In this document: positions 39,178 through 61,928 of the stretch, piece after piece | Position numbering within the stretch: the stretch's first letter is position 1 | Layout: each line of letters opens with the position of its first letter | DNA from: Candidatus Methanomethylicia archaeon | Lineage (GTDB): Archaea > Thermoproteota > Methanomethylicia > Nezhaarchaeales > B40-G2 | Direction of reading: 5' to 3' | NCBI GenBank assembly: GCA_029259155.1 | Contig: JAPDJI010000006.1 | Span: 5,657-69,656 of the forward strand | Length of the DNA stretch: 64,000 nucleotides | The notes under the pieces: model-generated | What the model saw: the letters and a program-made list of their open reading frames with translations, nothing else | The model's database searches: none | What the model was told of the DNA's origin: nothing | Translations under genes and position numbers: made by a program

Positions 39178-39181
39178 CGAC

Positions 39182-40633: not shown

Positions 40634-40649
40634 TTCACAAGGCCTCCAA

Positions 40650-44731: not shown

Positions 44732-44993
44732 AATTCTATTACTTAATATTTCATGTACATTTAGGATCGTTGAGAGGCCACCCCGGAACTCTCATTTCCC
44801 TATAGTTAGGACTATCTCCCCCCTGTGATGGCAACTTATGAATAAACTTTTTGCTGTTTTTTCAAGGTAGCGTAGGGCGAGTGAAAACTACGACGACTTA
44901 AGTACTATTGCTGTTGAGAAATGTAGCGCTGTGTCTATTATGGTGACAGCGAACAACATAAGATGGTCGTCCTGAAACTTTGGGGAGATGTGG

Positions 44994-46130
44994 CTAAGAC
45001 CCGCCGCTTAACTTGAAGAAGTTTAAAATGGTCTTTGCAGCTATTCTTGCACCGTTCAAGACGTCTGCGACTTTAACGTACTCGTCTTTAACGTGCGCCT
45101 GCCCCCTGGTCATGGTACCTATAGACACTATAGGCACATTGAACAGCCTGTGAAGTTGAGCTGCATCTATCCAACCTTTAGCCACGGTTGGCCAAGCCTT
45201 AAAGCCTTCGTCTTTAGCTGCTTCCAAGGCAGCCTTCGCTATGGGGCTTGACGGCTCAATCACGTAGCCTTTCAGCCCGCCCTTTAGCCTGACCTTAAAA
45301 CCATGTTTAAGTGCTCTATTTGCCACCTCTAGCACGCGCCTTACGGCATCTTTAGGGCTTAAGGTAGGTAGGAGCCTAAAGTTCACGTTCATGTAACATG
45401 AGTCAGGTACCATGGTGGGCCACTCACCTCCCTTAATGACTGTGACGGTAACGTTCTCGACGACCGGTAGAGGTCTTTCCATCCGCTGTAAAATTCTTGG
45501 GGATCGTAGCTCGCTGATAAGGTCGTAGGCCCTATAGATGGCGTTGACTCCAAGCTCAGGCTCTGAGGAATGATAAGCCTTACCTTCCACTATCACCTCC
45601 ACGTTAGCTATACCTCTACATCCTATCACTACTTCACATTGTCTGTCTTCAGCATCTATATAATGGTCTAGGCATATGCCAGCGTCGACGTCCACCTTGT
45701 CCTTCAACCCTCTCCTCGCCCTCACCTTACCTCCTCCCTCTTCCCTCGATGTGAAGAGAAGCACAAGCCTCCCGGGGAGGTGCTGAGTAACGAGCGCCTT
45801 GGCTATGGTCAACATCGCCGCCACTCCTGCCTTATTGTCTGAGGCCCCTCTACCGTACACCTTACCTTCTCTAAGCATACCTGAGTAGGGATCTATGGTC
45901 CATCCGTTTCCCGGCGGGACCGTGTCAAGGTGAGCGTTTAGTAAGACCCTGCGTTTTCCGCTACCTAGCTCGGCTATGACGTTGAAGTAGCCATCTACCT
46001 CGGCTCTCAGCCCCATCTCCTGTAGCTTAGAAACTACTAGCTTCGCAACTTTTTCTTCTCCTCTAGGAGGGCTTGGAATCTTAACTAGTTCCTGAAGGGT
46101 TTTAACCAAGTAATCTGAGTCCAGCTCCAT
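44994..46130 (-). CDS. M20-family metallohydrolase (ArgE/DapE/LysK-like)
   Basis: HLDTVPPGNGWTIDPY ... GRGASDNKAG metal-binding motifs. Confidence 0.75.
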   Translation of the reverse strand: MELDSDYLVKTLQELVKIPSPPRGEEKVAKLVVSKLQEMGLRAEVDGYFNVIAELGSGKRRVLLNAHLDTVPPGNGWTIDPYSGMLREGKVYGRGASDNKAGVAAMLTIAKALVTQHLPGRLVLLFTSREEGGGKVRARRGLKDKVDVDAGICLDHYIDAEDRQCEVVIGCRGIANVEVIVEGKAYHSSEPELGVNAIYRAYDLISELRSPRILQRMERPLPVVENVTVTVIKGGEWPTMVPDSCYMNVNFRLLPTLSPKDAVRRVLEVANRALKHGFKVRLKGGLKGYVIEPSSPIAKAALEAAKDEGFKAWPTVAKGWIDAAQLHRLFNVPIVSIGTMTRGQAHVKDEYVKVADVLNGARIAAKTILNFFKLSGGS

Positions 46131-46169
46131 ACAGGAGCCTTTTATACTGCTAGCTTCTTAAAGCCTATT

Positions 46170-46514
46170 GTGGACGTAGAAGCTAAGATTTTAGGGGCGA
46201 AGGCAGCGGAGAAGTCTCTAAATCGTTATGGGGCCCTTCTCGAAGGAGTTGCTGTCTACCTTAGCGACTGCTGTCTTGACGGTAAACCCTACGCTGAAAT
46301 ATACGTCTTCCTTGAAGAACTTCCTATCGAAGAGGAGGATATAGCCTCAGAGATTCTAGCCTCAATTAAGGAAGGTGAGTGTGCAGGCGTATCAGTGTTT
46401 GTCTTCACTTTAAGCGAAGTTGAGCGTAGAAGAGGCAGCCTAATAGAGGCGTTGAAGGTCTCCCACATAGCTTACGACAGGTCTGGTAGAATTAAGCGCC
46501 TCTTGGAAACCTAG
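46170..46514 (+). CDS. Hypothetical protein (114 aa)
   Basis: ORF only. Confidence 0.3.
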   Translation: MDVEAKILGAKAAEKSLNRYGALLEGVAVYLSDCCLDGKPYAEIYVFLEELPIEEEDIASEILASIKEGECAGVSVFVFTLSEVERRRGSLIEALKVSHIAYDRSGRIKRLLET

Positions 46515-46581
46515 AAGTCAAGGTAACGTACTTTCCCTACGTTATAGATGGGTCTTAAAGGCGTGCCTCAAGCATGGTATG

Positions 46582-48009
46582 TCATAGCCTTTCCCAAAGC
46601 TCCGAGGTGAATAGAGCTAGGATAGGTAGCAGTTCTAAGCGTCCAACCCACATACACCAGACCAAGGCCAGCTTCGAAGTAGCGTTAAGGCTGAAAAGAT
46701 CCAAGTACGCTGGTCCGACACCGCCCTCCGCTGATAAAGTGGCTGATAGAGCTGATGTGAAGGGTATGCCTTGGGCTGTTATGATAAGTGTAGAGACAAA
46801 AGCTACGGCCAAGTAGATGAAGAAGAAGCTAGCTACTCTTAACGCGTCTTCAACGTTCATGATCCTTCCTCCGACTTTGAGAGGTTTAATGGACTTTGGA
46901 GGAAGCATGGTTTTATGTACTTCATGTGACGCTAGCTTGAAGAGCACTATCATCCTCGCCACCTTGATAGCTCCAGCGGTGGAGCATAGCGATCCACCTA
47001 CGACCATCAATATCATCAATATCCACTTAGACGCCTCGGGAAGAGAATTAACATCCATGCTGGTGAAACCGGTTGTCGTAGCTATGGAAACTGTCTGAAA
47101 TACACCTAGCCTAAATGCATGTAGTGTACTAACGTTTAGATGAAGAACTATATCGAGGGAGACTATGATCGAAGCTACGGCTATAATCATTAACATTACC
47201 TTAAGCTCCAGGTTCCTCCAAACCTCATCGTTCCTCCCTTTAAGTAGATAGAGGTGGACGTGGAAGTTGGTGGCCCCTATAATCATGAACACCACTAGTA
47301 CGCTCTCTACCCAGGGGTTATGAAACCCCTCTATATTAAGTGTCTTTGTTGAAAATCCTCCAGTGGCCAACGTGGTAAAGGAGTGGCATAGAGCGTCGAA
47401 GCCCGAGAGGCCTAGGTAAGTCAGCAAAATAGCGCACAGGAAGGTGTAAAGCGTGTATATTAGCCAAAGATCCTTAACCGTGTCCCATGCCCTAATCGTA
47501 AGTTTCTCCTCTCTAGCTTCAGCTACGTAAAGCCTCCAAACTCCAATTCCACGTGGAGTCATAAAGAGGATGAAGAACAATACGATTCCAAGCCCTCCAA
47601 GCCATTGAGTTAAGGCCCTCCAGAAGAGTAAGCTATGAGGGACATCTTCAAGATTGCTCAGTAAGGTCATGCCAGTAGCCGTAAACCCAGACATGGCTTC
47701 AAAGAAAGCGTCCAGGGGTGCCATGTCATGTAGGTATGGAAGAGAGCCAATACCTGTTATCAGGAGCCAACCCATTGCTGAGAAGAACAAGGCCTGAGCT
47801 GGATTGATCTCGTCAGGGATGGGTAGCTTCGCGCTAAAGAAACCGCCTACAATCATGAGGGGGAGAGCTACTGAAAGCAGCTCTTCAAGAACCATCCACT
47901 CCTCATAGATTACAGCTACAAGACTAGGGGCTAAGAGCACGAGCCCAAGCAACAATGTGAGCCTCGCGAAGAGAGCAGGTAGTGCCAGTTTCTTCAATCC
48001 TGACACCAA
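46582..48009 (-). CDS. trkH: TrkH/KtrB-family K+ transporter membrane subunit
   Basis: MSGFTATGMT and SIATTTGFTSMD pore-loop motifs. Confidence 0.75.
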   Translation of the reverse strand: MVSGLKKLALPALFARLTLLLGLVLLAPSLVAVIYEEWMVLEELLSVALPLMIVGGFFSAKLPIPDEINPAQALFFSAMGWLLITGIGSLPYLHDMAPLDAFFEAMSGFTATGMTLLSNLEDVPHSLLFWRALTQWLGGLGIVLFFILFMTPRGIGVWRLYVAEAREEKLTIRAWDTVKDLWLIYTLYTFLCAILLTYLGLSGFDALCHSFTTLATGGFSTKTLNIEGFHNPWVESVLVVFMIIGATNFHVHLYLLKGRNDEVWRNLELKVMLMIIAVASIIVSLDIVLHLNVSTLHAFRLGVFQTVSIATTTGFTSMDVNSLPEASKWILMILMVVGGSLCSTAGAIKVARMIVLFKLASHEVHKTMLPPKSIKPLKVGGRIMNVEDALRVASFFFIYLAVAFVSTLIITAQGIPFTSALSATLSAEGGVGPAYLDLFSLNATSKLALVWCMWVGRLELLPILALFTSELWERL

Positions 48010-48856: not shown

Positions 48857-49514
48857 TTCTGAGTATTAATACCTTGCCGAGGTCGGTTAACCTATAGCTT
48901 TTATCAAGAGTAAGCTCCACTAATCCTCTATCTTCAAGCGCGGAGAGCGTATTTGAGAGTTCTTCCACGCTCTTTCCTTTCATCTGGGCTATTTCTCTTA
49001 ACTTGAGCTCTCTCTGCCTTAGAATTTTTAGAAGTTCCAGCTCTTCGTGGCTGAGGGCATGTAGGAGGGGCTTCACGTTGAACATAGCTCTATGTAAAGG
49101 ATATAGCATAGCTGAGTATGAGAACGCAGAGGCGGCGTAGAGGCTGTACGATAAGGGAGGCTCGATGGGGATATGTATGAAGAGGATGAGGAACGCTAGT
49201 AGCGCTAACCCCATGGCCACTGCCTTAGCTTTGTTTTCCTTAGCTCCGAAAAGCTTGTTGTAGAGGGCTCCTAGCAGGACACCAACCACTATTAAGGTTA
49301 AGGGCAGGAAGATAACGATGGATGACACTATCAAAACCCAAGAGTGGAGAGTCGGTTCAATGGCTTCGAGGCCTACGGAGCTTAGAGCCTCATAGAGCCT
49401 CTCCGGGCTATGGACTAGGACAAAAAGTGTAGCTGAGGTGAGGATGAATATGCATGGAAGGATGGCTATGAAACCTGCCTTAGCCCCAGCATTTGTGGTC
49501 AAGTTAAGCTTCAC
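48843..49514 (-). CDS. Membrane-tethered winged-helix transcriptional regulator (4 TM plus C-terminal wHTH)
   Basis: TM helices then LKILRQRELKLREIAQMKGKSVEELSNTLSALEDRGLVEL; last gene of the ABC-2 operon. Confidence 0.45.
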   Translation of the reverse strand: MKLNLTTNAGAKAGFIAILPCIFILTSATLFVLVHSPERLYEALSSVGLEAIEPTLHSWVLIVSSIVIFLPLTLIVVGVLLGALYNKLFGAKENKAKAVAMGLALLAFLILFIHIPIEPPLSYSLYAASAFSYSAMLYPLHRAMFNVKPLLHALSHEELELLKILRQRELKLREIAQMKGKSVEELSNTLSALEDRGLVELTLDKSYRLTDLGKVLILRTKFS

Positions 49515-50259
49515 ACCTCCTGAACAAGTAGGCGCCTAAAAGCAGGGTGAAGGTACATAGCACGGTTAACACGATGAGGTTTACGATTAATGGAAGCGCC
49601 CCTTGACCAATAAGTGCTCCTCTCAATCCGTCTACAGCATAAGTTAAAGGATCGAGATAAATTATCCACTTCATCCATGTAGGCGCGCTCTCTAAGGGGA
49701 AGAAGGCGGTGGAGAGGAGGATCATGGGCATGATCAACAGGTTCATTATCAAACTAAATCCTTCAAAGTCGCTTAGTCTAGATGCTATTATTAACCCTAT
49801 TCCTACGGCGAAGAAGGAGGTCAACAGCATGAATAGGAGGCCAAGCGTCAGCCCTAAGGCATTAATCTTAACCCCCATGAGGGCGCTTACGGTTAATATA
49901 GCCAAGCCTTGAAACATCGCTACTGTAGATCCTCCAAGCGTTTTCCCCACCACTATGGAAAGCCTGCTTACAGGTGCAACTAAGACTTCCTTCAAGAACC
50001 CGAATTGTCGATCCCAGATTATCAAAACTCCTGAAAACATGGATGAAAAGGCGACCGCTACGACAATCATTCCGGGCGCCAGGAAATCTAGGTAACGGAT
50101 TCCCTCCCTAAAACCGGGAAACCTAGCAGCGCTTAATCCGAAACCTAAGATCACTAAGAAAAGTAGTGGCTGCATAAGGTTGGCTACAAGCCTACTTCGT
50201 GCTCTTATCAGCCGCTTAATTTCCCTAAGCCACAACACGTAGACGGCTTGTAAGTTCAA
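49504..50259 (-). CDS. ABC-2 type transporter permease
   Basis: 6-TM ABC-2 architecture; 4-nt spacing from the ATPase gene. Confidence 0.7.
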   Translation of the reverse strand: MNLQAVYVLWLREIKRLIRARSRLVANLMQPLLFLVILGFGLSAARFPGFREGIRYLDFLAPGMIVVAVAFSSMFSGVLIIWDRQFGFLKEVLVAPVSRLSIVVGKTLGGSTVAMFQGLAILTVSALMGVKINALGLTLGLLFMLLTSFFAVGIGLIIASRLSDFEGFSLIMNLLIMPMILLSTAFFPLESAPTWMKWIIYLDPLTYAVDGLRGALIGQGALPLIVNLIVLTVLCTFTLLLGAYLFRRCEA

Positions 50260-50262
50260 TCC

Positions 50263-51237
50263 TCAATGCCTCCACGGCTTCCCTTGCCTTTCAGCTCTCT
50301 CTTCCAAAGGAACCTTACCCGTCAAATGTATGAACACGTCTTCGAGCGTAGGTCTACGTAAACTCACCGCCTCAACCTCAATAGCCATCTGCTCCGCCAA
50401 CTTAACCACTTTAGGGACTTTCCCCTCCCCCTTCTCTACGTATATGCTTAGATGTTTACCATCCGTCAGCTTCACGTCCTTAACCCAGCCCTCCTTCGCT
50501 AGAACCTCGGCCAGTTCTCGTGCTCTAGCGCAACTTAGAGTTATAACGTCCTTCCCCATCAAATCCTTCAGGTTAGAAGGCGTGTCCGAAGCTATTATCC
50601 TACCTCGATCAATGATAGCTACCCTTCTGGCGAGAAACTCGGCTTCTTCTAAGTAGTGGGTGGTCAGAAACATGGTTACACCTTCATCACGGTTAAGCTT
50701 CAACACATAGTCCCATATAATCCTCCTAGACTGGACGTCAAGACCTAGCGTAGGCTCATCGAGGAAGAGCACTTTAGGGTAATGCATTAAGCCTCTAGCT
50801 AATTCAAGCCTCCGCTTCATACCTCCAGAGTAGTTCCTAACGAGCTCGTCCGCCCTATCAAGTAGGCCGACAAGCTCCAAAACCTCTCTTATACGTTGAG
50901 CTCTACGTTTCCTCTCTATTCCGTACATCCTGGCGTGGAAGTCGAGATTCTCACGGCCGGTAAGCCTATCATCTAGAGCAGGCTCCTGAAACACTACGCC
51001 TATCACTCGCCTCACTTCATCGGGCTGCTTTACCACGTCGAAGCCACAGATCTTAGCTGTGCCCGACGTAGGTCTTAGAAGGGTGGAGAGTATTCTAACT
51101 GTGGTTGTCTTGCCTGCGCCGTTAGGTCCTAGGAAGCCAAAGATCTCTCCTTCCTTGACCGTGAAGGATACATGGTCTATCGCGACTACTCTCCCATTAA
51201 AAACCTTTGTCAGCTCATCGGCCTCGATAGCTGTCAA
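50263..51237 (-). CDS. ABC transporter ATP-binding protein (ABC-2/DrrA-like)
   Basis: Walker A GFLGPNGAGKTT, signature YSGGMKRRLELA, Walker B VLFLDEPT. Confidence 0.85.
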   Translation of the reverse strand: MTAIEADELTKVFNGRVVAIDHVSFTVKEGEIFGFLGPNGAGKTTTVRILSTLLRPTSGTAKICGFDVVKQPDEVRRVIGVVFQEPALDDRLTGRENLDFHARMYGIERKRRAQRIREVLELVGLLDRADELVRNYSGGMKRRLELARGLMHYPKVLFLDEPTLGLDVQSRRIIWDYVLKLNRDEGVTMFLTTHYLEEAEFLARRVAIIDRGRIIASDTPSNLKDLMGKDVITLSCARARELAEVLAKEGWVKDVKLTDGKHLSIYVEKGEGKVPKVVKLAEQMAIEVEAVSLRRPTLEDVFIHLTGKVPLEERAERQGKPWRH

Positions 51238-51899: not shown

Positions 51900-52283
51900 T
51901 TGCATGAGTTCTCCGTCATGCAGTCGATGGTGGAGATGATCCTTAGCATGGCTGAAGCTAAGGGTGCAGTTAAGGTACTATCGGTTTCCCTGCGTGTAGG
52001 AGAGCTTACTTTCCTTAATCCTGAGCAGTTAAGGTTCGCCTTCGAAGTCTTAACGGAGGGCACCATAGCTCAAGGCGCATCCCTCCTAATAGAGTCTGTT
52101 AAGCCCGCGGTCAGGTGTAGGAGATGTGGCTATGAGGGGGAGGTAGATTACCGGGGAGAAGAAGTACACTTACCTCTCGTCGTGCCCTTATCGGTTAAGT
52201 GTCCGAAGTGTGGCGGCGACGTGGAGCTGATAGCCGGGAGGGAGTGCACTCTAACCTCCATCAAAGTGAAGCTTGATGAGTAG
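51900..52283 (+). CDS. hypA: Hydrogenase nickel-incorporation protein HypA
   Basis: MHEFSVMQSMVEMI N-terminus and zinc site CRRCGYEGE...CPKCGG. Confidence 0.75.
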   Translation: MHEFSVMQSMVEMILSMAEAKGAVKVLSVSLRVGELTFLNPEQLRFAFEVLTEGTIAQGASLLIESVKPAVRCRRCGYEGEVDYRGEEVHLPLVVPLSVKCPKCGGDVELIAGRECTLTSIKVKLDE

Positions 52284-52342: not shown

Positions 52343-53257
52343 CTAAGCTTCCTTAAACAGCCCCTTAATGGACGTAGCGCTTAGGTCTTTGGGGGGTACA
52401 AGGTGCAGGTGGAGGCCTACGTCTTCAACAGGATGAAAGCCTAAAGCTAAGCCTACTAACTGCGAGACGTGGAGCACGGGGATAACTTTATCGAGCTCGC
52501 CGAGGTCTCTCATCTGGTACTGCGTCTTATCTATCATTAGCTGGCAGGCAGTACACATCACTAATATTAGGTCTGCGTCTGCGTCCACCATGCTCGTTAC
52601 CTTTAGCCTCGACACCGGGCTAAGGGCTTCTAGGACCCAGGGCCACTTCATGGCTGTGGCGCCGCAACACGTAGCTTTCTCTTCGTAGCTCAGTACGTTC
52701 GCACCGAGCGATAAAGCTATATCTTCTAGTAGATCCTCGCCATCCACGCCCTTAATGGCTTTAGCGTGCATGGCATAAGCGTAGTGACAGCCTACATGAG
52801 TAACCACATTAAGCCCTTTTAGGGAGTCCTGGGCCATCTCGCTTATCTTCTCTCTGAGAAGCCATAGAACCTCAGCCACGTGTAGACACTCTATGTTCTC
52901 TGAAGGACTTTTCTTCAGAGCTACGTTAAACGTCCTGTAGCAGCCGTTGCAAGGCGTCACCACTACGTCGTGTTTGATCAGTCTTCGCATATTGTAGCTG
53001 GTCAACATCTTCAACTCCTCCCTACCTATCATCCCTGCTATTTCAAGCGGTAGGCCGCAGCAGACAACGTGTTCAGGACTGAGTACTTTGAAGCCTAGTT
53101 TCTCAAGCACCTTAATGGAGGAGTAAGTTACGCCGGGGTAAATGCTTGTAGCTATGCAGCCAGGGTAGAACGTTAAGCTCCTCCTCTTTAAGAGCTCCTC
53201 CATCTCAAGCCTCACCTTAAGCTTTCTTGCCCCTCGGCTTAGGCCCTCGCCCCCCAA
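52343..53257 (-). CDS. hdrB: Heterodisulfide reductase subunit B-like (two CCG domains)
   Basis: Two Cys-rich CCG motifs (VVCCGLP, ATCCGAT). The real start is probably the ATG of MEELLKRR near 53206, avoiding the overlap with hdrC. Confidence 0.7.
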   Translation of the reverse strand: MGGEGLSRGARKLKVRLEMEELLKRRSLTFYPGCIATSIYPGVTYSSIKVLEKLGFKVLSPEHVVCCGLPLEIAGMIGREELKMLTSYNMRRLIKHDVVVTPCNGCYRTFNVALKKSPSENIECLHVAEVLWLLREKISEMAQDSLKGLNVVTHVGCHYAYAMHAKAIKGVDGEDLLEDIALSLGANVLSYEEKATCCGATAMKWPWVLEALSPVSRLKVTSMVDADADLILVMCTACQLMIDKTQYQMRDLGELDKVIPVLHVSQLVGLALGFHPVEDVGLHLHLVPPKDLSATSIKGLFKEA

Positions 53258-53669
53258 TGATCTTTCTCAGCTCAGCTCTCACGTATTCTGGGAGCAGGCG
53301 AGGGTTAAGCCCCCTCGGCTCGTTGAAGTCGCGTACCTTATCATTCACAGGCGCCATCATAACTCCTCGGCTCAGTATATTGTCGAGAGCCTCTAAGTAG
53401 ACCTCTAAGTCGCCTCGCTCTAGACCTCTGCTCACGAGCATCCTTCTCAGCGCCTCTACGACCTCAGGTATGTGTACTGCATTGGGACATACGGCCTCAC
53501 AGGTGTGACATAATAGGCAGAGCCAAAGGTGGTCGTGAAGCGCCTCTCTACCCATCGCTACGTTTAGCATGACTCTTCTAGGGCTGAAGCTCATTGTAGC
53601 TCTTGCTGATGGACAGGCAGATGTACATGCTCCACACTGGATACATCTGCGTCCTTCACTGAGTAGCAA
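53217..53669 (-). CDS. hdrC: Heterodisulfide reductase subunit C-like (2x[4Fe-4S])
   Basis: CIQCGACTSACP and CLLCHTCEAVCP. Confidence 0.7.
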   Translation of the reverse strand: MLLSEGRRCIQCGACTSACPSARATMSFSPRRVMLNVAMGREALHDHLWLCLLCHTCEAVCPNAVHIPEVVEALRRMLVSRGLERGDLEVYLEALDNILSRGVMMAPVNDKVRDFNEPRGLNPRLLPEYVRAELRKIIGGRGPKPRGKKA

Positions 53670-54065
53670 TTCTAAAATAACTCTTCACCTCCTATTGAAT
53701 TTATGTCGGAAGTCGAACTCATGCTGTTGGTAGCTAGGGTGCACGGCGCTGAAGTAGTTTCACGGATATGTACTGCCTGCAGGGAATATGAGGATGCTGT
53801 AGCGCTAGCTTTAATCTCGAAGGTGGACGCTGAGAGGCTCGGGCTTAAGGATGGAGACCTCGTTGAGGTGTCTTCTATTACGTCTGTAGTGACCGTTAAG
53901 GTTAAGGTCTCCGATGAGGTACGTGAGGGGCAAGTCTTGATGCCGCAGAGCCCTTGGTCTATGTCGCTCATACCTAGCAGCTGGGCTTCAAGGCCATACC
54001 CTAGGCTTAGCGGACTCAAGGTAACGGTTAAGCGGTCTTCGGGTGAAGCAACCAGCCTTGACAAG

Positions 54066-55373
54066 CTACTCCACTCCTGAGAACTCTTTCCTCAACCTCT
54101 CGAGGTCGCCGCGCTCGAAGAGTATCCTAACCTTTGGGGAGGCGAAGATCTTGATGGCCTCCTCGACTCTTCTCTTAACCAGCTCGAAGCCTGCTGGAAG
54201 AGGTGGTATAGGTCTCGGGGGCGGCGGCACGTACTCTTCTGTGGGAAGCTCTACTTTCCTCGCGTATAGCTCGCCCCTTGGCGCTCTGTAGCCTTCAAGC
54301 ACTTTCTTAAAGAACTCTTCATAGCTAGCTGACCAAGGGGCTCTACCTTTCTCAATCCTCATGTGCTTTCTCCTAACCTCTAAGGCCTCGACAGGACAGG
54401 CCTCCTCGCAGGCTCCACAGTATATGCAAGCTTCCTTGACAGCCGATACCTTGTCTGGTCCCACTGCCTTAGAGACGTATATTGCCTTAGTCGGACAAAT
54501 GTTGATGCAGTTTTTACATCCTGAAGGATCGCACTTATCAGGGTTAACCATGACCACCTCTCCGTCAAAGGGGGGCTCACAGCTTACAGCCTCGGTGGGA
54601 CATACCTTAGCGCATAGCCCACAGTAGACGCAGAGCTCTTCGTCGACCTCCACCGAGCCGCTTACGCGAGGCTTCTCTACGACCCTCGGCGCAGCCTTTG
54701 TACACTCGACCTTTATAGCGTCCGTCGGACATATCTCCTCGCATAGGCCACAGTAGTCGCAGAGCTCCTCGTTGACGATGATTGTTAGCCCCGGCTTAAA
54801 GCTGGGCGCTTCAGGCCGAGTCCACTCAATCCGTAGCGCATCGCAGAGATCTTCGCATAGGCCGCAGTAACAACACTTCTCTAGGTCTACAGCTATCTTG
54901 CCCTCGGCGTACCTATCAGCTGTCTCGTACTTGACAAGGTCTTCCTTCTTAGCCACCTCGACCTTAGCCTTGATGGCTACACGAGGGCACACGCGCTCGC
55001 ATAGGTGGCATGGGATGCACTTGTCCTCATCGATCGATATGGAGCCCTCGACCCTTGGGTACTCCTCCTCGTGCTCGATGTTGACCTTGAGGGCGTGGGT
55101 AGGGCAGATTGACGAACATAGGGGGCATATCACGCACTTGCCCTCGTCTATCATTATGAGGGGGGCCTCCAACTTACCTGAAGCGACCTCCTTAATGGGC
55201 CCCAAGCTAATGGCGTTAGTGGGGCACACCTTGACGCATAGACCGCAGCCCACACAACGATCGATTATGAAGGTTAGCTCCTTACCTAATACAACGCCCT
55301 GCCACCTGTAGAGCAGGAGATTTTCCTCTATCGCTGAGAGCTCGGTGATGGGCTTCTCAGACAAAGCTTCCAC
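54066..55373 (-). CDS. Polyferredoxin with eight [4Fe-4S] motifs (FwdF/MvhB-like)
   Basis: Eight CxxCxxCxxxC(P) motifs counted; 17-nt overlap with the hdrA stop. Confidence 0.75.
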   Translation of the reverse strand: MEALSEKPITELSAIEENLLLYRWQGVVLGKELTFIIDRCVGCGLCVKVCPTNAISLGPIKEVASGKLEAPLIMIDEGKCVICPLCSSICPTHALKVNIEHEEEYPRVEGSISIDEDKCIPCHLCERVCPRVAIKAKVEVAKKEDLVKYETADRYAEGKIAVDLEKCCYCGLCEDLCDALRIEWTRPEAPSFKPGLTIIVNEELCDYCGLCEEICPTDAIKVECTKAAPRVVEKPRVSGSVEVDEELCVYCGLCAKVCPTEAVSCEPPFDGEVVMVNPDKCDPSGCKNCINICPTKAIYVSKAVGPDKVSAVKEACIYCGACEEACPVEALEVRRKHMRIEKGRAPWSASYEEFFKKVLEGYRAPRGELYARKVELPTEEYVPPPPRPIPPLPAGFELVKRRVEEAIKIFASPKVRILFERGDLERLRKEFSGVE

Positions 55374-57768
55374 CTCCAGTGGCCTCGGAGCCTATTGGCC
55401 CGAGGTTAGCCACCTCATCCACGAACCATCTTATCAGCTCCGCCAGCCTCTTTCCCTCAGTCGCTGAAGCCCCGTCGATGTGGAGCCTCCTAGGGTTTAT
55501 GCCTACCTCCTTCAACACTTCCCTGAGGGCTGAGGCCCTTTCATTAGCCTTCGCCCTGCCGGAGCGGTAGTGACAGTCTTGTTCGTGGCAGCCAACTATG
55601 AGCACGCCGTCAGCCCCCAACTCAAAGGCCTCTAGCACGTGTACCGGCGTGACCCTAGCTGAACAAGGCACCCTGATGACCCTCACGTTAGTCGGGTAGG
55701 GAATCTTGCTAGTCCCAGCGTTGTCTGCGGCTGCGTAGCCGCACCACTGGCACATGAAGGCCACTATGAGCGGGAACTCCTTCTTCTCGGACAGCAGGGC
55801 CTTAAGCATGAGCGATATCTGCTCGTTGCTCAGGATCCCGCCGGGAGGAGATAGAGCTCCTGTCGGACACACTGCATAGCATGCTCCACAGCCTCGGCAG
55901 GCTAGCTCATCTACCTCCACCTTCCCCTTCTCCACCTTCAGGGCTCCGAAGAGGCATGCATTTACGCAAGCGAAGCATCGCTTACATGTACTTGGATCAA
56001 TGGTAGGAGCGTAGACCTCAACCTCAACCTCACCTCTCTTGATGAGCTCTGCTGCCCTAGCCGCCGCAAGCCCAGCTTGCATGACAGACTCGGTTATATC
56101 CTTAGGCCCTGTGCACGCTCCCGCCACGAAGATTCCTTTGCTGAAGGTGTCGGCTGGGTTAAGCTTTAAGTGATACTCAGCTAGGAAGTCGTAATCGCTT
56201 AGCTGTAGGCCGAGGAGCTTGGCCAGCTCCCTATTGTCTGGGGGCGCCTCCACGCCTACGCTGAGTACGACGAGGTCGAACTCCTCCTCGACCATCTCTG
56301 AGGAGAGTGTGTCCTCGTAGAAGATCTTGATCCTCCCTTGCTTCGTGGCCCTAAGCTGCCCTACCTTCGCCCTTAGGAAGCGTACGCCCAGCTCCAGGGC
56401 CCTCCTGTAGGCTTCCTCACACGCCTTGCCAATGGCTCTCACGTCGGTGTAGAAGATGGCAACGTCGACGTCGGGGAGCATGAGCTTGGTCTGTATGCTC
56501 TGCTTGATGGCGTTCATGCAACATACTCGGCTACAGTAAGGCCTCCCAATCCTGTCAGACCTGCTCCCCACACACTGTATGAAGGCTACTTTCTTAGGTT
56601 GCGCCCCGTCCGATAACCTAATTATTTTTCCCTTGGTTGGACCCGAGCTATTAAGCATCCTTTCGTACTCGGGCCCCGTCACGACGTCGAGGCACCTGCC
56701 ATAAAGGTATTCTGGAAGCCCCCGCGGGTCAAAGGGCTTGAAGCCGGTGGCTACGATGATGGCCCCTACCTTGAACTCGATGTAAGAGTCTTGGTCCTTG
56801 AAGTTTATAGCTTTAGGATCGCATACCCCGAGGCACGACATGCAGCCAATACACCTACTCATATCTATGTAAGGCGCTGGAGGGACGGTTTCTGGCGAGG
56901 GCTTAACGATGGCCCTCCTCATACCTATACCGTAGTCGTACTCGCTGGGGGCCTCGATGGGGCATACATCGAGGCACTTATTGCACCCGTTGCAGAGCTT
57001 TTCATCGATGTACCGAGCCTTCTTCAACACCTTCACGGTGTAGTTGCCGGGCGCACCCTTGACCTCTACGACCTCGCTCAGCGTGTACACGTCTATTAGG
57101 GGGTGGTTGTACACCTTCGAGAGTTGGGGGCCTAGCACGCAAATGCTGCAGTCAAGGGTTGGATAGACCTTGTCCCACTTGGCCATGTGCCCCCCTATGA
57201 AGCCCTCCTTCTCCACGAGGTATACCTTGATCCCCATGTCGGCAAGGCTTAGAGCGGCTGTGATCCCTGCTACGCCTCCACCTATGACTAGGACCGCTTT
57301 CTCCACGGGCAGCTTTGCTACCTTAGCCTCCCTGGCGTAAGGCGCTGCGGCTATGGCCATGCTGACCAGGTCAGCGGCCTTGACGGTAGCTCTATCTGGG
57401 TCGTGTGCGTGGACCCATGAGCACTGTTCCCTCAGGTTAACTATCTCCACGAAGCCTCTATTGAGGCCAGCCTCCTCAGCGGCGTTCTTGAAGAGCTCGC
57501 TGTGTAGTGTAGGGGTGCAGCATCCTATGATTAAGCGGCTAGCCTTCTCCTCCTTTAAGGCCTCTTTTATTTTTCTTAGGCCATCATCGCTGCAGCAGTG
57601 CTCATGTTCATAGAAGGCTACGTCTGAGTACTTCTCAGATAGAGTTTTAATGACCTTACCTACATTTACTACCCCTGCGATGTTTGAGCCGCAGTGACAG
57701 ATGAAGGTCAGGACCTTGCTGGGAGCTCCCCCCGCACCGTCCAGCCTAGCCGTCTAGACCACCTTCAT
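55357..57768 (-). CDS. hdrA: Heterodisulfide reductase subunit A fused to a C-terminal MvhD domain; the conserved N-terminal Fe-S domain lies upstream of the first canonical start and is preceded by ATG-AAG-GTG-GTC-TAG
   Basis: FAD motif VLVIGGGVAG, inserted ferredoxin motifs, C-terminal FMCQWCGYAAAD...IRVPCSARV (MvhD). The in-frame upstream sequence LTFICHCGSNIAG...IIGCCTPTLH...NLREQCSWVH is the HdrA N-terminal domain. The ORF track starts at GTG 57450; ATG at 57766..57768 is followed by an in-frame TAG at 57754..57756. Confidence 0.7.
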
Positions 57769-57775
57769 TAAGCGT

Positions 57776-59047
57776 TTAGAGCGAGGAGCTCAACCTCTCA
57801 AGGAACACCTCCTCGTCAGCCACGCTGGCTGGAGGCTTAAGGAAGGGTTTAAGCTTCACTTCGACGCCGTCCATCCTCGTAACTGTCCCTCCACTCTCAA
57901 CACCCATTATTGAGAGCGGAACCGAGACTTTCCCGTTAGAGAAGGTCCAGGTAGCCCTCTCCTCTAGGACTATTGTTGGGATCCTCATTAAAGCCTTAAC
58001 TGCTAGAGGGGTTAGTTCCTCGGACACCTCGCTTTTAACTATGAGTGCTGCGTCCACCCCTTCCCGCTCGAGCTGGCAAGTTGCAGTAGCCTCAGGGGAC
58101 ATGTGTTCTTTAAGGGCTGAGAAATCCAGGGCCCGTGGCGCGCCCCCAAGCTTCTTTGTGATGAGGGCTTGGCCCATAGAGTTCACGTACTCAGCCATAG
58201 GCATTATGGAGACCTTCTTTCCAAGCTCAAGCAGCGACCTAGCCAGCTCAGCCATGGAGCTTAAAGCCTCTTCAGGCTTCTCCGACTGAAGTAGTCCGCG
58301 GCCGATGAACATAGCCACGTAGGTGGCCGGCTTAAGGTCCTTAATTATGGATGAGAGGTCCCTTAAAGTTACACCTGCGGCCTCGCCCACCGTGGGGGTC
58401 TTGCTAAACATAAGGTCTCTTAGCGCTCTAGCGAGCTCAGCGTCGCTTCCAGGCCTTAACAGTACTTTATGCTGGGCTATCCTCATGGTATTAGTCTCCC
58501 TAACATCGACCACCGCGACTATCCTGCTCTCTCTGCCCATAGGGGTGCTTCTTCCCCTCGGAAACACGGCGTAGCGACTTGCATGCCTCAGGTGAGTCTC
58601 TGCGGGATCCGCACCCCAGTACAATATGAAATCGGCGTCTTCAAGGATATCGTCCAAGCGAGCGCCTAGGAAAGAGGGGTCGAGGTCTAAGAGGGCGTGG
58701 CAAATGCTCGCTGAGCTATCGTAGAGTCCTCTAAGCTTCTGGGCTAGTTTTACTAGAAGCTCTACAGTCCTATTGGTACTGTTTGCCCCTCCGTAGATAA
58801 GCGGCTTCTTCGCCACCTTTAAGATCTCAGCGGCCTTTTCTAAAGCTTCGTCCACCGACACCTCCTTGAGTCCTCCCTGCTCAGCGATGGCCACCTTCAT
58901 AGGCCTAGCTCCGACGAGCTCCTTGAACCTCTTGGTCCCATGGCTACAAGTACCCAGGACCCTAGTTACCGTGTTGTCTCTTACGTCCACCACTATATCG
59001 TCGCACAGCAACGAGCAACTAGTGCAGGGCACACCCTCTATCTCCAT
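57776..59047 (-). CDS. Formylmethanofuran dehydrogenase subunit B (FwdB/FmdB)-like molybdo/tungstopterin subunit
   Basis: VPCTSCSLLCDDI, ASICHA, DFILYWGADPAETHLRHASR, VAVVDVRET, VTRMDGVEV align motif-for-motif with the FwdB N-terminal Fe-S, the active-site Cys region and the pterin-binding segments. Confidence 0.7.
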   Translation of the reverse strand: MEIEGVPCTSCSLLCDDIVVDVRDNTVTRVLGTCSHGTKRFKELVGARPMKVAIAEQGGLKEVSVDEALEKAAEILKVAKKPLIYGGANSTNRTVELLVKLAQKLRGLYDSSASICHALLDLDPSFLGARLDDILEDADFILYWGADPAETHLRHASRYAVFPRGRSTPMGRESRIVAVVDVRETNTMRIAQHKVLLRPGSDAELARALRDLMFSKTPTVGEAAGVTLRDLSSIIKDLKPATYVAMFIGRGLLQSEKPEEALSSMAELARSLLELGKKVSIMPMAEYVNSMGQALITKKLGGAPRALDFSALKEHMSPEATATCQLEREGVDAALIVKSEVSEELTPLAVKALMRIPTIVLEERATWTFSNGKVSVPLSIMGVESGGTVTRMDGVEVKLKPFLKPPASVADEEVFLERLSSSL

Positions 59048-59514
59048 TAAGCCACCACCTTTATCGCTTCGCTATAACACACAAGCTCGCAAACATTACA
59101 GTTCATCCTATGGGGCGGGTACCTCCTACACTTTTCGAGGTGGAGCACCTTAATTTTACCGTCCTCCACCAGCCATAAAACCTCATCGGACAGCGGGTTT
59201 AGCCCTTTCCCTGCCCTCGTGTCTAAGACAACGTTGGCGGGGCAGGCAATCACACAGTTCCCGCAGCCGATACATTTATCGAGGTCTATATTAACGAGGG
59301 TCTCGGACGCTGAGATAAGGGGGGCCAAGAGTTTCGTGAGCTCAGCCAACTTACCAGAATATTTAGGGTCAGACGTTAGAAGCGGGCAGTCCTCAATCCT
59401 AGCCTGTCTATTGATCAGCTTCATGGCAAAACCCATACATGTCGTACCGCATTTCTTGCAGTTAGTTCCAGGCAAGAGCTTGTAAACTTGGAGGGGGGTT
59501 ATCCGGGTAGACAT
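59047..59514 (-). CDS. Ferredoxin with N-terminal RnfB-type FeS domain (PF04060-like) plus [4Fe-4S] motifs
   Basis: LLPGTNCKKCGTTCMGFAMKL...CP then CIGCGNCVIACP and a C-terminal Cys cluster; 1-nt overlap with the fwdB-like start. Confidence 0.55.
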   Translation of the reverse strand: MSTRITPLQVYKLLPGTNCKKCGTTCMGFAMKLINRQARIEDCPLLTSDPKYSGKLAELTKLLAPLISASETLVNIDLDKCIGCGNCVIACPANVVLDTRAGKGLNPLSDEVLWLVEDGKIKVLHLEKCRRYPPHRMNCNVCELVCYSEAIKVVA

Positions 59515-59654
59515 AAACTCACGCGCCTTAAGTTCACCTCGAATTTTTCGGCTGGCCTAAAAAAGGCCAGGTAGTTAAAGCTTTGGTTGTGCGCCTCTTA
59601 GCTGAACCGCTCTGTGACAATTAAGATAAACTTTTTCATTATTTTGGCTGTAAC

Positions 59655-60728
59655 CTAGAAAAGCATGTACCTTGTCCATAGCCTAGAAGGCTCATACCTA
59701 CCGGCTATAGGTATCTTAAAGCCACAGCTTCTGCACCTCATATCTTCGCTAAGCCTCCAAGCAGTTACCTCGAAGCCAAGCCTCTCCACAACAGCCTCGC
59801 CGCAGCTAGGACAGTAGGTGGTACTTCCTTCACCTCCAGGGACGTTGCCTAAATAGACAAATCTTAATCCTTCCTCTGAAGCGACCCTTCGAGCTCTTCT
59901 GAGAGAATCTATTGGTGTTGGAGGTAGATGGGTGAACTTGAAGTGTGGGTAGAACCTGCTAAAATGTACTGGTGTATCTGGACCTAGCTCATCGTAAAGC
60001 CACTTACACAGCGCTCTAACTTCCTCCAAGCTATCGTTAAGCCCAGGTATCAGCAGAGTAGTGGTCTCTACATGGACTCCTTTACGTTTAAACTCAGCCA
60101 CAGTTCTCAGGACCTCTCTTAGCTCACCTTTACAGTATTCGCGGTAGGTATCCTCCTTGAACGCCTTAATGTCCACATTAGCAGCATCTATGAAATGGAC
60201 GGCTTCATCTAAGGCTTCAGCGCTTATGTAACCGTTGGTGACGAACACTATGAAAATGCCCTCCTTTTTAGCTTCACGTGCCACGTCTAAGTCGTACTCT
60301 AGCCATATAATAGGTTCATTATAGGTGATGGAGATAGAGGGGCACTCGGTTCTTTTAGCGGCCTCGACCACGCTTCTGGGGTCGGCGTACTCTAAGTCAG
60401 CTGTATTCAGCCTAGCTGGCTGAGAAAGATGCCAATTTTGACACCAAGGACACCTAAACGAGCAGCCAATGCTGCTTATCGATAACGTGGCTGACCCTGG
60501 CCAGAAATGGTATAGAGGCTTCTTTTCTATGGGGTCTACCGCCATGGCTGTGAGGCGCCCATAAATAAGGGAGTACAGCCTGCCATCTATGTTAATCCTG
60601 GTGCCGCAGAAGCCGTATCCGCCGGGCTTAATGGTGCACCGTCGAGGGCAAATAGTGCATTGGACATAGCCCTCTTCAAGCTCCACGTAAAACCTAGCCT
60701 CAACCCCTATGTCGACTTGCTGCCTCAT
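59655..60728 (-). CDS. AmmeMemoRadiSam-system radical SAM enzyme (PFL-activase-like)
   Basis: N-terminal CTICPRRC and core GCSFRCPWCQNWHLS match the AmmeMemoRadiSam rSAM family. Confidence 0.75.
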   Translation of the reverse strand: MRQQVDIGVEARFYVELEEGYVQCTICPRRCTIKPGGYGFCGTRINIDGRLYSLIYGRLTAMAVDPIEKKPLYHFWPGSATLSISSIGCSFRCPWCQNWHLSQPARLNTADLEYADPRSVVEAAKRTECPSISITYNEPIIWLEYDLDVAREAKKEGIFIVFVTNGYISAEALDEAVHFIDAANVDIKAFKEDTYREYCKGELREVLRTVAEFKRKGVHVETTTLLIPGLNDSLEEVRALCKWLYDELGPDTPVHFSRFYPHFKFTHLPPTPIDSLRRARRVASEEGLRFVYLGNVPGGEGSTTYCPSCGEAVVERLGFEVTAWRLSEDMRCRSCGFKIPIAGRYEPSRLWTRYMLF

Positions 60729-61142: not shown

Positions 61143-61928
61143 TTAGACGTGTGAGCGGAAAAGCTTTACGCTCACCGCTTCCACGATGTTTGCCACCCCT
61201 ATCGAGGCGGGGGCCTCAATAAAAACGTCTACTTCACTTGTCAACGCCGACCTCGCTACGTTAACTTCTATGAGCTTGGCACCCCTCCACCTAGCTTCTA
61301 AAGGTAAGCTCGCGGCAGGCATCACCACTCCTGACGTGCCTACTATCAGCATAGCATCACATTGGTGGACTTCCTTTAACGCGCTCCTCCACACCTCTGG
61401 ATCGACAGCCTCTCCAAACCAAACGACATCTGGCCTCAAAAGACCACCACAGCTAGGACAAATAGGAGGTAGGTTGCTTGGGGGATCGGTAAGCTTGTCC
61501 TTAAAGCTACAATGGACGCATTTAACCGACCAGATATCTCCATGTAGCTTAATTATTTTCCTTGACCCAGCCCTTTCATGTAAGTCGTCTACATTCTGCG
61601 TCAAGACCGCCTTAATTAAACCCAGCTTTTCCAGCTCAGCTAAGCCTAAGTGGGCTTGATTAGGGGTAGCTTGCTTTATGAGCGTCATTCTCCATTTATA
61701 CCAGTTCCAAACCTTGGTAGGATCCTTGGCGAAGGCTTGAGGCGTAGCGTAATCCTCTGGCCTAAAATCCTTCCAAAGGCCACTAGCACCCCTAAAGGTT
61801 GGTATCCCTGACTCTGCAGAGATACCTGCTCCTGTGAAGGCTACAACATACTTGGAGCCCAATAGGATCTGCGCCGCTCGCTCGGCGAGCAAGCCCTTAC
61901 GCCTAGACTGAAATCTTGGAGCTTCCAC
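61143..61928 (-). CDS. cobB: NAD-dependent protein deacetylase, Sir2 family
   Basis: GAGISAESGIPTFRG, QNVDDLHERAG, zinc site CxxC...CxxC. Confidence 0.85.
   Translation of the reverse strand: MEAPRFQSRRKGLLAERAAQILLGSKYVVAFTGAGISAESGIPTFRGASGLWKDFRPEDYATPQAFAKDPTKVWNWYKWRMTLIKQATPNQAHLGLAELEKLGLIKAVLTQNVDDLHERAGSRKIIKLHGDIWSVKCVHCSFKDKLTDPPSNLPPICPSCGGLLRPDVVWFGEAVDPEVWRSALKEVHQCDAMLIVGTSGVVMPAASLPLEARWRGAKLIEVNVARSALTSEVDVFIEAPASIGVANIVEAVSVKLFRSHV

Follow-up and report, generated by a model that had tools for sequence, protein, structure and literature searches.

A candidate bifurcating disulfide reductase joined to an FwdB-like pterin module in a Guaymas Methanomethylicia genome

Introduction

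What does a set of Hdr genes do when it is found together with FwdB and FwdF homologues and without FwdA and FwdC? The question is raised by a locus (52343-59514) in a Guaymas MAG of Candidatus Methanomethylicia, of which a stretch of 64 kb, here called the window, was analysed. An earlier note had described six co-directional, overlapping or abutting genes and, built from them, an Hdr-type module of flavin-based bifurcation joined to FwdB and FwdF homologues. The homology assignments support such a module, lacking FwdA and FwdC. On balance, we favour the reading that the locus encodes a seven-subunit cytoplasmic Fwd-Hdr complex, in which a bifurcating disulfide reductase would be wired to a C1 (CO2/formate) pterin module.

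Gene content of the locus

The ORF read-out of the window shows six minus-strand ORFs in the order claimed, and their assignment as ferredoxin, FwdB-like protein, HdrA::MvhD, polyferredoxin, HdrC and HdrB was borne out by profile, PDB and motif matches, with every Hdr and Fwd NCBIfam score under the curated equivalog cut-off. The polyferredoxin and hdrC genes do not abut, because a 396-nt gap between them is occupied by a seventh, FwdD-like ORF on the other strand. FwdD had been listed as absent, which is wrong since this ORF encodes an FwdD-like cap.

59047..59514, minus strand, FwdG-like ferredoxin with an N-terminal FeS domain (PF04060, Fer4, PDB FwdG chains)
57776..59047, minus strand, FwdB-like subunit, putatively W/Mo-pterin binding (TIGR03129, PDB FwdB chains, AF2/Foldseek)
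57754..57768, minus strand, five-codon upstream frame ATG AAG GTG GTC TAG (direct sequence reading)
55357..57744, minus strand, HdrA fused to MvhD, HdrA2 type (NF040770, 5odc_A, PF02662)
54066..55373, minus strand, FwdF-like polyferredoxin with eight [4Fe-4S] motifs (NF042909, 9sw6_H, 5t5i_F)
53703..54080, plus strand, FwdD-like putative pterin cap (PF01568, NCBIfam FwdD, PDB FwdD chains)
53217..53669, minus strand, HdrC-like subunit with two [4Fe-4S] motifs (TIGR03290, hdrC models, motifs)
52343..53257, minus strand, HdrB-like subunit with two CCG domains (PF02754, TIGR03288, 5odc_B alignment)

The FwdD-like ORF and the polyferredoxin gene overlap tail to tail by 15 nt at their 3' ends, and the polyferredoxin gene overlaps the hdrA stop by 17 nt. 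The hypA gene (51900-52283, plus strand), earlier placed immediately upstream, sits past hdrB on its 3' side, the two genes being convergent.

As the earlier note had stated, the 64-kb window contains no FwdA or FwdC gene by tblastn (queried with the L032 proteins) and no hydrogenase by Pfam scans of 45 ORFs of ≥180 aa and several shorter ones. The same tblastn analysis found no Ftr, Mer or Cdh genes and the same scans no Mcr; the Pfam scans covered all ORFs of ≥180 aa but four (12670-13221, 49504-50259, 50263-51237 and 61143-61928) and a minority of those of <180 aa. Neither Mcr nor CoM/CoB genes were found in the window by tblastn and Pfam analysis of most ORFs of ≥180 aa. A stretch of 64 kb is too short for these negatives to establish the non-methanogen context proposed earlier.

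Disulfide reductase and electron-transfer subunits

HdrA::MvhD matches the HdrA2 model NF040770 over positions 4-777 of 777 (988 bits, cut-off 1100) and aligns with 5odc_A over residues 6-633 (E 3e-185), with the equivalents of Cys194/Cys197 and the N-terminal Cys present. It has an N-terminal cluster domain, an FAD/thioredoxin-reductase domain, and inserted and C-terminal ferredoxin domains with four ferredoxin motifs, and its MvhD part is an FlpD match (PF02662, E 8e-48, residues 562-684 of the 697-aa ORF). The HdrC-like protein scores 72 bits to TIGR03290 (cut-off 160), also matches hdrC models, and carries the [4Fe-4S] motifs CIQCGACTSAC and CLLCHTCEAVC. In the HdrB-like protein (PF02754 CCG, E 4e-21; TIGR03288, 134 bits, cut-off 345), the motifs FYPGC, VVCCG, CNGCY, GCHY, TCCG and CTAC align with 5odc_B, and all ten Cys of two non-cubane [4Fe-4S] clusters are present. 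Together, these three proteins would form a flavin-based electron-bifurcating disulfide reductase.

The polyferredoxin, in which eight [4Fe-4S] motifs were counted, is closer to FwdF (NF042909, 261 bits, cut-off 375) than to VhuB (95 bits), matches the PDB FwdF chains 9sw6_H and 5t5i_F at E 1e-57, and ends in an extension of about 85 aa with a proline-rich stretch. The ferredoxin (Fer4 in Pfam) has 12 Cys, sufficient for three [4Fe-4S] clusters. Its C-terminal half best matches the FwdG chains 9sfi_U, 5t5i_G and 7bkb_L, to which is added an N-terminal FeS domain of RnfB/CFeSP type (PF04060, E 7.5e-13) matching RnfB and the N-terminus of the CFeSP large subunit. A homologue of this FeS-domain ferredoxin lies directly 5' of the FwdB-like gene in 27/30 TACK/Asgard loci and 40/41 loci of the Methanosarcinales group.

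The electron exit of HdrA is its inserted ferredoxin domain, to which FmdF binds (PMC12350162). By homology with the solved Fdh/Mvh-Hdr-Fmd supercomplexes, the polyferredoxin would dock on the corresponding domain as the low-potential exit, and the chain would run on via the FwdG-like protein and reach the FwdB-like subunit at its [4Fe-4S] cluster; the wire would thus consist of an 8-cluster polyferredoxin and a 3-cluster ferredoxin. Electrons may enter or leave via the MvhD domain. For enzymes of the HdrA2 type, the donor with a precedent is F420H2, and the F420 biosynthesis genes cofD and cofC are within the window.

The FwdB-like subunit and its active site

The FwdB-like protein scores 312.3 bits to TIGR03129, below the curated cut-off of 327.8. 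Every other family scores far lower, with NuoG at 48 bits and formate dehydrogenase alpha (TIGR01591) at 40.3 bits against a cut-off of 666; the better match to formate dehydrogenase or generic molybdopterin families that the earlier note had named as a refutation did not turn up. It matches PDB FwdB chains over its full length (E 1e-54 to 1e-56), and its AF2 model (pLDDT 86.7) fits 5T5M_B/5T5I_B with a Foldseek TM of 0.92 and an rmsd of 2.5 Å, with clearly lower values of about 0.7 for NuoG and FDH. By sequence and fold it stands far nearer to FwdB than to formate dehydrogenase. Its likely partner, the FwdD-like protein, has PF01568 Molydop_binding (E 1.1e-14), FwdD as best NCBIfam match, and 2ki8 (A. 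fulgidus FwdD-2), 9sfi_S and 5t5i_D as best PDB matches; such a cap is the fourth domain of the molybdopterin fold. The two would make up a W/Mo-pterin module of catalytic subunit and cap. Upstream of the FwdD-like ATG, at a distance of 23-30 nt, is an A/T-rich, TATA-like box, TAAAATAA.

The [4Fe-4S] ligands C8, C11, C15 and C34 align with C9, C12, C16 and C35 of 5T5I_B and are invariant in 80/80 locus-derived homologues. The active-site Cys region noted earlier holds, as C116-H117 in ASICHA align with the metal-ligating Cys118 and His119 of FwdB. Of the columns conserved in canonical FwdB, only 40/89 are kept; common residues include PL.YG, D112, D144, H157/R159/H160, R179, D185/R187, D336 and G391/R395/D397. 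These scaffold residues and the FwdD cap are indirect evidence that the subunit may bind a W or Mo bis-pterin cofactor. The active site is otherwise altered: where FwdB has the catalytically important Arg288 (PMC6926001) in MRGHYN, the protein reads PMAEYVN, with Ala285-Glu286 at this place and no Arg or Lys within 5 residues of it. The Cys-His pair, the [4Fe-4S] Cys and the scaffold residues are thus kept and Arg288 is not, and because of this loss the formate/CO2-type chemistry proposed earlier is not secure.

Arg288 is replaced in 24/24 members of the window's clade (Ala in 23, Val in P0015) and is missing from every sampled FwdB-like protein paired with an FeS-domain ferredoxin. At the His119 position, clade members carry H, R or Q, and Cys118, lost in 9/80 locus-derived homologues, is missing in several other lineages. 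These losses would fit an inert FwdB-like/FwdD-like pair that acts as a structural or electron-relay scaffold, in a complex that would simply be a disulfide/ferredoxin reductase of HdrA2 type. F420H2 or another donor would supply it, and its polyferredoxin wires would deliver low-potential electrons to other enzymes, e.g., CODH/ACS. The fast divergence of the subunit, the lack of FwdD at the corresponding site in the two closest relatives (L003/L007 and L087) and the rank of NuoG, whose C-terminal domain would be one parallel, as second-best NCBIfam and fold match also favour it. Precedents exist in FhcB (PDB 6S6Y), the scaffold of the formyltransferase/hydrolase complex (PMC6926001), and in the inactive, Cys-less molybdopterin protein of Methanolobus hdr-fdhB clusters (hdrABC-mvhD-fdhB; PMC12054007), both with an FwdB/FdhA fold, lost catalytic residues and a scaffold role. 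However, the window's protein has the N-terminal [4Fe-4S] domain, the Cys-His pair and the FwdD cap, all three of which FhcB lacks, as well as many scaffold residues. Moreover, Cys118 and P-[ML]-A-E are kept in 23/24 clade members (Ser and Val in P0015), which points to selection on that site. We consider an inert module unlikely.

A W/Mo enzyme neofunctionalised for a substrate other than CO2/formate, driven by or feeding Hdr bifurcation, would account for the remodelled site, in which Cys is combined with Ala-Glu and Gly120 is deleted. The clade shows a conserved active-site pattern of its own (C[HRQ] and P[ML]AE..N versus the canonical CHG and MRGHYN) and stands apart in a neighbour-joining tree, with fold and FeS site intact. 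Against this, one would not usually expect the residue after the Cys to vary if the site were finely tuned, and the neighbourhoods give no candidate substrate but rather CO2/C1 genes (CODH/ACS, Ftr, Mer, FwdA-like, carbonic anhydrase), so we regard such an enzyme as quite unlikely. Under the favoured reading, the pterin site would most likely carry out a two-electron C1 reaction (CO2/formate), coupled to reduction of a disulfide at HdrB.

Occurrence in other archaea

A cluster of ferredoxin, FwdB-like, HdrA::MvhD, polyferredoxin and convergent FwdD genes, with or without HdrCB, recurs in Nezhaarchaeales, Methanomethylicia, Bathyarchaeia, Baldrarchaeota, Jordarchaeota and Thorarchaeota, in at least 24 TACK/Asgard loci, and its parts are found in Methanosarcinales. 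Among 33 TACK/Asgard loci, HdrA::MvhD is present in 25, HdrA adjoins the polyferredoxin gene in 24, and FwdD converges on the latter in 17. Identity to relatives is 39-59% for the FwdB-like protein, the lowest among the core large subunits, versus 53-81% for HdrA. In Nezhaarchaeales loci L012, L025 and L036, the gene order is identical to that of the window, including the opposite-strand FwdD (FwdB 40-43%, HdrA 68-70% identity).

In many relatives, the genes next to the cluster are those of CODH/ACS, CooC/CooT, Ftr, Mer or Mtd. No hydrogenase, FdhB or FrhB recurs around the cluster as a conserved electron-donor module. Homologous pairs of Fd and FwdB-like genes have an FwdA-like gene next to them at Jordarchaeia, Baldrarchaeum and Promethearchaeota loci, and FwdC occurs at a Helarchaeota locus. 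Arg-less FwdB-like genes are accompanied in Jordarchaeum and Baldrarchaeum by FwdD and by an amidohydrolase resembling FwdA (TIGR03121, 328 bits), and a gamma carbonic anhydrase is a further neighbour in Jordarchaeum. In Baldrarchaeota MAG_95, the cluster lies between Ftr/Mtd/Mer and CODH/ACS. Such arrangements could point to a true formylmethanofuran dehydrogenase, with FwdA and FwdC encoded elsewhere in the genome and joining an FwdBDFG-Hdr core as in methanogen supercomplexes. Yet FwdA, FwdC and Ftr were not found in the 64 kb, Arg288 is missing, and Ca. Methanonezhaarchaeum fastidiosum YNP3N is described as having a separate canonical FwdABCD cluster for that task (PMC12700198). We hold this explanation to be very unlikely; in the complex favoured here, no formylmethanofuran would be made because FwdA and FwdC are missing.

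Comparison with known systems

The novelty that the earlier note implied does not stand, as a "Fwd-Hdr" cluster made up of the same genes has been named in YNP3N (Sci Adv 2025, PMC12700198), with FwdB, FwdD, FwdF, FwdG and HdrABC co-located and, in that description, without FwdA/C, Mvh or FdhAB. Judged by its genes, the locus is a member of this known kind of cluster, widespread in archaea. For YNP3N, a cultured methanogen whereas the present host is a MAG, formate-driven bifurcation (formate oxidation) was proposed by inference. The missing Arg288, the opposite-strand FwdD and the wider distribution go without mention in the part of that paper cited here.

The best solved homologues of HdrABC, MvhD, FwdF, FwdG, FwdB and FwdD are all in methanogen Fdh/Mvh/Vhu-Hdr-Fmd/Fwd supercomplexes (reference structures PDB 7BKB, 9SFI and 9SW6). 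Unlike these, the locus lacks FwdA/FwdC as well as a donor module of the hydrogenase or FdhAB kind. Its HdrA and MvhD form one polypeptide, its ferredoxin carries the additional FeS domain, and its FwdB-like protein is without Arg288. With the formate-dependent Hdr (FdhAB-HdrABC-MvhD) of Methanococcus and Methanomicrobiales, the locus would share the concept of coupling Hdr bifurcation to a C1 enzyme with a Mo/W pterin; there, the pterin subunit is of FdhA rather than FwdB type, and the locus has no FdhB flavoprotein.

Methanosarcina HdrA2 (MA2868) is an HdrA::MvhD whose gene likewise adjoins one for a polyferredoxin. This pair is homologous to that of the window, and Methanosarcinales fwdG2B2D2 to the window's Fd(FeS)-FwdB-like-FwdD trio (PMC2838876, PMC5861303). 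In the Methanosarcinales group, fwdG2B2D2 and hdrA2-pfd lie within 10 kb and divergent in 22/43 loci, and FwdB2 likewise lacks Arg288 (CQG / PMVG). There, however, FwdB has FwdD behind it on its own strand, a few kb lie between the units, HdrB2C2 is encoded elsewhere, and identity to the window is about 45% for HdrA and about 33% for FwdB. HdrA2B2C2 uses F420H2 and was assayed without Fwd2 proteins (PMC5861303).

The favoured complex draws on observed subunit identities, cofactor-binding Cys and conserved synteny, together with fold, C1 neighbours and F420 genes; Arg288 loss, FwdB-like divergence, a cap that is not universal, sub-cut-off scores and the lack of a conserved donor module count against it. 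Its assembly, direction of electron flow, substrate and pterin cofactor are predicted from these features.

Start codons of hdrA and hdrB

The complete HdrA domain set holds only if translation starts 5' of 57450. The first canonical start is GTG 57450, whose use would remove the N-terminal cluster domain, which is coded in frame 5' of it; no ATG, GTG or TTG lies between the in-frame TAG (57756-57754) and 57450. The probable start is a non-canonical CTG (57744-57742), to which the GTG start in the closest relative is aligned, and the start-region sequence is identical in two other assemblies (L001 and L002). The true start of HdrB may be an internal Met about 18 codons in. The five-codon frame upstream of hdrA is in the HdrA frame, ends 9 nt 5' of the CTG, and is identical in L001 and L002.

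Gene content of the operon

The earlier note had described six co-directional genes, and their order was borne out by the ORF listing, with all six on the minus strand. Every one of the six assignments is backed by Pfam and NCBIfam profiles, and searches against solved structures led, for every subunit, to the matching chains of methanogen Hdr-Fwd/Fmd supercomplexes. With a seventh gene on the plus strand, the features are as follows.

59514-59047, minus strand: ferredoxin
59047-57776, minus strand: FwdB-like subunit
end at 55357, minus strand: HdrA::MvhD
55373-54066, minus strand: polyferredoxin with eight cluster motifs
53703-54080, plus strand: FwdD-like cap (Molydop_binding domain, E 1e-14)
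53669-53217, minus strand: HdrC
53257-52343, minus strand: HdrB

HdrA matches the NCBIfam model of HdrA2, the Methanosarcina-type fusion with MvhD, from end to end (988 bits), and the polyferredoxin scores far higher with FwdF (261 bits) than with VhuB (95 bits). All of the cysteines expected in HdrB (10/10) and the equivalents of Cys194 and Cys197 in HdrA are present. The polyferredoxin runs about 85 aa past FwdF in a C-terminal extension (residues ~351-435; 54066-54320, minus strand) that includes the proline-rich stretch PPPPRPIPPLP, and its tblastn matches in TACK relatives extend to query residues ~425-435.

The FwdD-like ORF fills the 396-nt space between the polyferredoxin and hdrC genes, and its top NCBIfam and PDB matches are FwdD (2KI8, 9SFI_S, 5T5I_D). 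The pterin cap is thus present, and the claim that FwdD is absent was wrong. The 3' ends of fwdD and the polyferredoxin gene overlap tail to tail by 15 nt, and an A/T-rich box lies 23-30 nt 5' of the fwdD ATG. A minus-strand ORF antisense to fwdD (53672-54064) is of low complexity, has no credible family match and was taken as non-coding.

Upstream, a hairpin (CTGGCC-TTTTTT-AGGCCAG, 59550-59568, minus strand) separates the ferredoxin gene from a radical-SAM gene (59655-60728), which suggests separate transcription of the hdr-fwd operon. Contrary to the placement of hypA immediately upstream, this gene is convergent with hdrB.

Start of HdrA

GenBank annotates HdrA as a truncated protein of 697 aa. 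The N-terminal cluster domain (CHCG...CC...GCCTP) lies in frame 5' of position 57450, where the first canonical start is, and no ATG, GTG or TTG occurs between the in-frame TAG (57756-57754) and that position. A CTG at 57744-57742 lines up with the GTG at which HdrA of the closest relative (L003) starts and is preceded by a five-codon frame, ATG AAG GTG GTC TAG (both within 57742-57768, minus strand). The simplest reading of the sequence is that HdrA would start at this non-canonical CTG, perhaps coupled to the five-codon upstream frame.

Two other explanations were considered. A homopolymer frameshift, with an out-of-frame GTG ahead of a G6 run, was rejected: three assemblies share one and the same sequence here, and the CTG, which is in frame, matches the start (GTG) of L003 in the alignment. 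In the two further assemblies the operon is 99.9% identical and the upstream HdrA sequence exactly the same, while the three differ elsewhere by 7-10 SNPs. Read-through of the TAG, or its decoding as pyrrolysine, is unsupported, as the conserved HdrA alignment starts past the TAG.

Family and active site of the FwdB-like subunit

The FwdB-like protein scores 312.3 bits against TIGR03129, just below the cut-off of 327.8, compared with 48 bits for NuoG and 40 for Fdh-alpha. The FwdB reading of the earlier note therefore stands over formate dehydrogenase and other molybdopterin families. An AF2 model (pLDDT 86.7) superimposes on FwdB with a TM-score of 0.92 versus ~0.7 for NuoG and FDH.

The active site was aligned over 80 locus-derived and 119 database homologues, numbered by the FwdB structure 5T5I_B. 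In FwdB, Cys118 is catalytic, and His119 and Arg288 are catalytically important (PMC6926001). Canonical FwdB/FmdB proteins carry the motifs CHG and MRGHYN, and those among our loci all lie beside FwdA, and beside FwdC where the contig reaches far enough. Arg288 is missing from every ferredoxin-linked FwdB-like protein sampled. The clade of the window's protein has the signature C[HRQ] and P[ML]AE..N, with C116-H117, A285-E286 and a deleted Gly120 in the window itself; Methanosarcinales FwdB2 has CQG and PMVG, and a Thorarchaeota-type group has lost the Cys (118) as well. A search around positions 118 and 288 found no substitute Arg or Lys that the clade conserves; neither R106 nor R250 of the window's protein is conserved.

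None of the four [4Fe-4S] cysteines varies among the locus-derived homologues (80/80). Of 89 columns that are conserved in canonical FwdB, the clade retains only 40, many of them probable cofactor-scaffold residues. A neighbour-joining tree sets the canonical FwdB clade apart from the Arg-less groups.

Distribution and gene neighborhoods

When a genome collection was scanned and mapped by tblastn, the cluster turned up in Nezhaarchaeales, Methanomethylicia/Culexmicrobium, Bathyarchaeia, Baldrarchaeota, Jordarchaeia, Thorarchaeota and others. Among 33 non-redundant TACK/Asgard loci, HdrA::MvhD occurs in 25, HdrA adjoins the polyferredoxin in 24, FwdD is convergent on the polyferredoxin in 17, and HdrCB is found in 11. 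The FeS-domain ferredoxin is directly upstream of the FwdB-like gene in 27/30 loci, and these two genes run with HdrA, as in the window, or diverge from it. The constant unit of the cluster is FwdD facing polyferredoxin-HdrA.

FwdD itself varies in position. The two closest relatives (L003/L007, L087) lack it at this site, between polyferredoxin and hdrC, and in four loci it is the final gene of the cdhABCDE (CODH/ACS) operon. In these Methanomethylicota-type MAGs (L013 14890-21194, also L010, L017 and L021) the FwdD-like gene lies 3 nt past cdhE and is convergent on the Fd-FwdB-HdrA-polyferredoxin operon. In Baldrarchaeum (L030 3776-5726), FwdD and a FwdA-like gene are convergent on polyferredoxin-HdrA, and in Jordarchaeum (L026 7442-12383) FwdD, a FwdA-like gene (TIGR03121 328 bits, below the cut-off), Fd and an Arg-less FwdB-like gene adjoin gamma carbonic anhydrase and FolD. 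Together with the FwdD of the cdh operons, these arrangements suggest that the orphan opposite-strand FwdD is a leftover of a larger Fwd operon.

CODH/ACS, CooC, CooT, Ftr, Mer or Mtd adjoin the cluster in many loci. When neighboring ORFs of 34 loci were clustered, only CODH/ACS, CooC and CooT recurred, and no conserved electron-donor module (hydrogenase, FrhB/FdhB) was found. In L003 (L003/L007 16573-21272), desulfoferrodoxin and rubrerythrin genes come before the cluster and a Psr/Phs-like operon (Fer4_11, NrfD, molybdopterin oxidoreductase) comes after it.

Of 43 loci in Methanosarcinales, 22 have Fd-FwdB-FwdD, which is the fwdG2B2D2 cluster (PMC2838876), within 10 kb of HdrA::MvhD-polyferredoxin (HdrA2-pfd) and divergent from it. 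In Methanolobus, Methanosarcina, Methanohalophilus and related genera (L038-L085, e.g. L047, L074), the distance of such a trio from the divergent hdrA2-polyferredoxin genes is 1-5 kb. The parts of the window's cluster are counterparts of two Methanosarcina gene sets, hdrA2-pfd and fwdG2B2D2.

Function and relation to described systems

Hdr-based electron bifurcation is the source of very low-potential electrons for CO2 fixation in many anaerobes. By homology, HdrA::MvhD-HdrCB would be a bifurcating disulfide reductase, and electrons may pass between it and a W/Mo-pterin module by way of the FwdF-like polyferredoxin and then the FwdG-like ferredoxin. FmdF docks on the inserted ferredoxin domain of HdrA, the low-potential exit, in the solved structure from M. 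hungatei (PMC12350162); with that placement the pterin site would be an output. The paper on Ca. Methanonezhaarchaeum fastidiosum YNP3N made the contrary proposal that it is a formate-oxidising input (PMC12700198). The precedent donor for HdrA2 enzymes is F420H2 (PMC5861303), and because such enzymes use it, the F420 biosynthesis genes of the window are relevant. These lie at 32931-35323 and comprise a nitroreductase-family gene, cofD (33542-34471) and cofC (34679-35323).

The C1-rich neighborhoods favor CO2/formate chemistry at the pterin site. Should the module act on CO2 or formate, no simpler hard-wired bifurcating CO2 reductase or formate dehydrogenase would be known, and the methanogen supercomplex could plausibly have it as a precursor or have left it as a remnant. 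The lack of Arg288, the variation at His119 and the dispensability of FwdD favor instead a scaffold or an enzyme with a new substrate, in which case the consistent Arg288 loss would mark new pterin chemistry or one more catalytic subunit turned scaffold. One far-reaching form of the new-substrate reading, which we consider unlikely, is that the FwdB-like/FwdD-like pair, which lacks Arg288 but conserves Cys and Ala-Glu, constitutes a new W/Mo-pterin subfamily with a substrate or mechanism unlike CO2/formate reduction, powered directly by low-potential electrons of an HdrA2-type bifurcating complex, widespread in Wood-Ljungdahl TACK and Asgard archaea, and the missing physiological partner of Methanosarcina HdrA2-polyferredoxin.

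Judged by sequence, the window's cluster belongs to a type already described from genome data in 2025 as Fwd-Hdr (PMC12700198); names for its parts in Methanosarcina date from 2010 (PMC2838876). A search for literature on fwdG2B2D2/FwdB2 and on HdrA2 with Fwd gave only the 2010 expression study. The literature searched made no mention of FwdD on the opposite strand, of Arg288 being lost across the family, of a CODH/ACS link of the cluster or of the closeness of fwdG2B2D2 to hdrA2-pfd.

The minimal Fwd-Hdr cluster reaches well past methanogens, into Thermoprotei, Bathyarchaeia and Baldr-, Jord- and Thorarchaeota, and CODH/ACS genes are repeatedly next to it. The labels "formylmethanofuran dehydrogenase subunit B" and "hypothetical protein" are poor ground for inferring formate use or a complete Wood-Ljungdahl methyl branch; in GenBank, the operon's proteins belong to a Guaymas-type "Thermoprotei archaeon" MAG (DRJ98, RLF11037-RLF11040), whose FwdB-like and FwdD-like products are annotated as hypothetical.

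Other features of the window

No genes for FwdA, FwdC, Ftr, Mer or CdhA-E were detected by tblastn in the 64-kb window, the sole match being the ferredoxin FeS domain against the CdhE N-terminus. Of the 49 ORFs of 180 aa or more, 45 were scanned with Pfam, as were several shorter ones, and neither hydrogenase nor Mcr was found among them. No tRNA, rRNA or other RNA family was found in the 64 kb (Rfam, gathering thresholds), which leaves no 16S for taxonomy. A scan for sigma-70 promoters and intrinsic terminators gave chance-level counts and, as its design does not cover archaea, was set aside. The large ORFs 10473-11660 (395 aa), 13990-15417 (475 aa) and 16338-18302 (654 aa) have no Pfam family at E <=1e-5; the last has a weak MutS_V match and nothing else.

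An ion-transport island spans 35856-48009, with three Mrp/NuoLMN-type antiporter-like subunits (35856-40633), four TrkA_N genes, a ClC channel and TrkH. The GC content is 0.57 over 35856-41932 compared with 0.49 in the rest of the window, and is also raised in the hdr-fwd operon (0.54).
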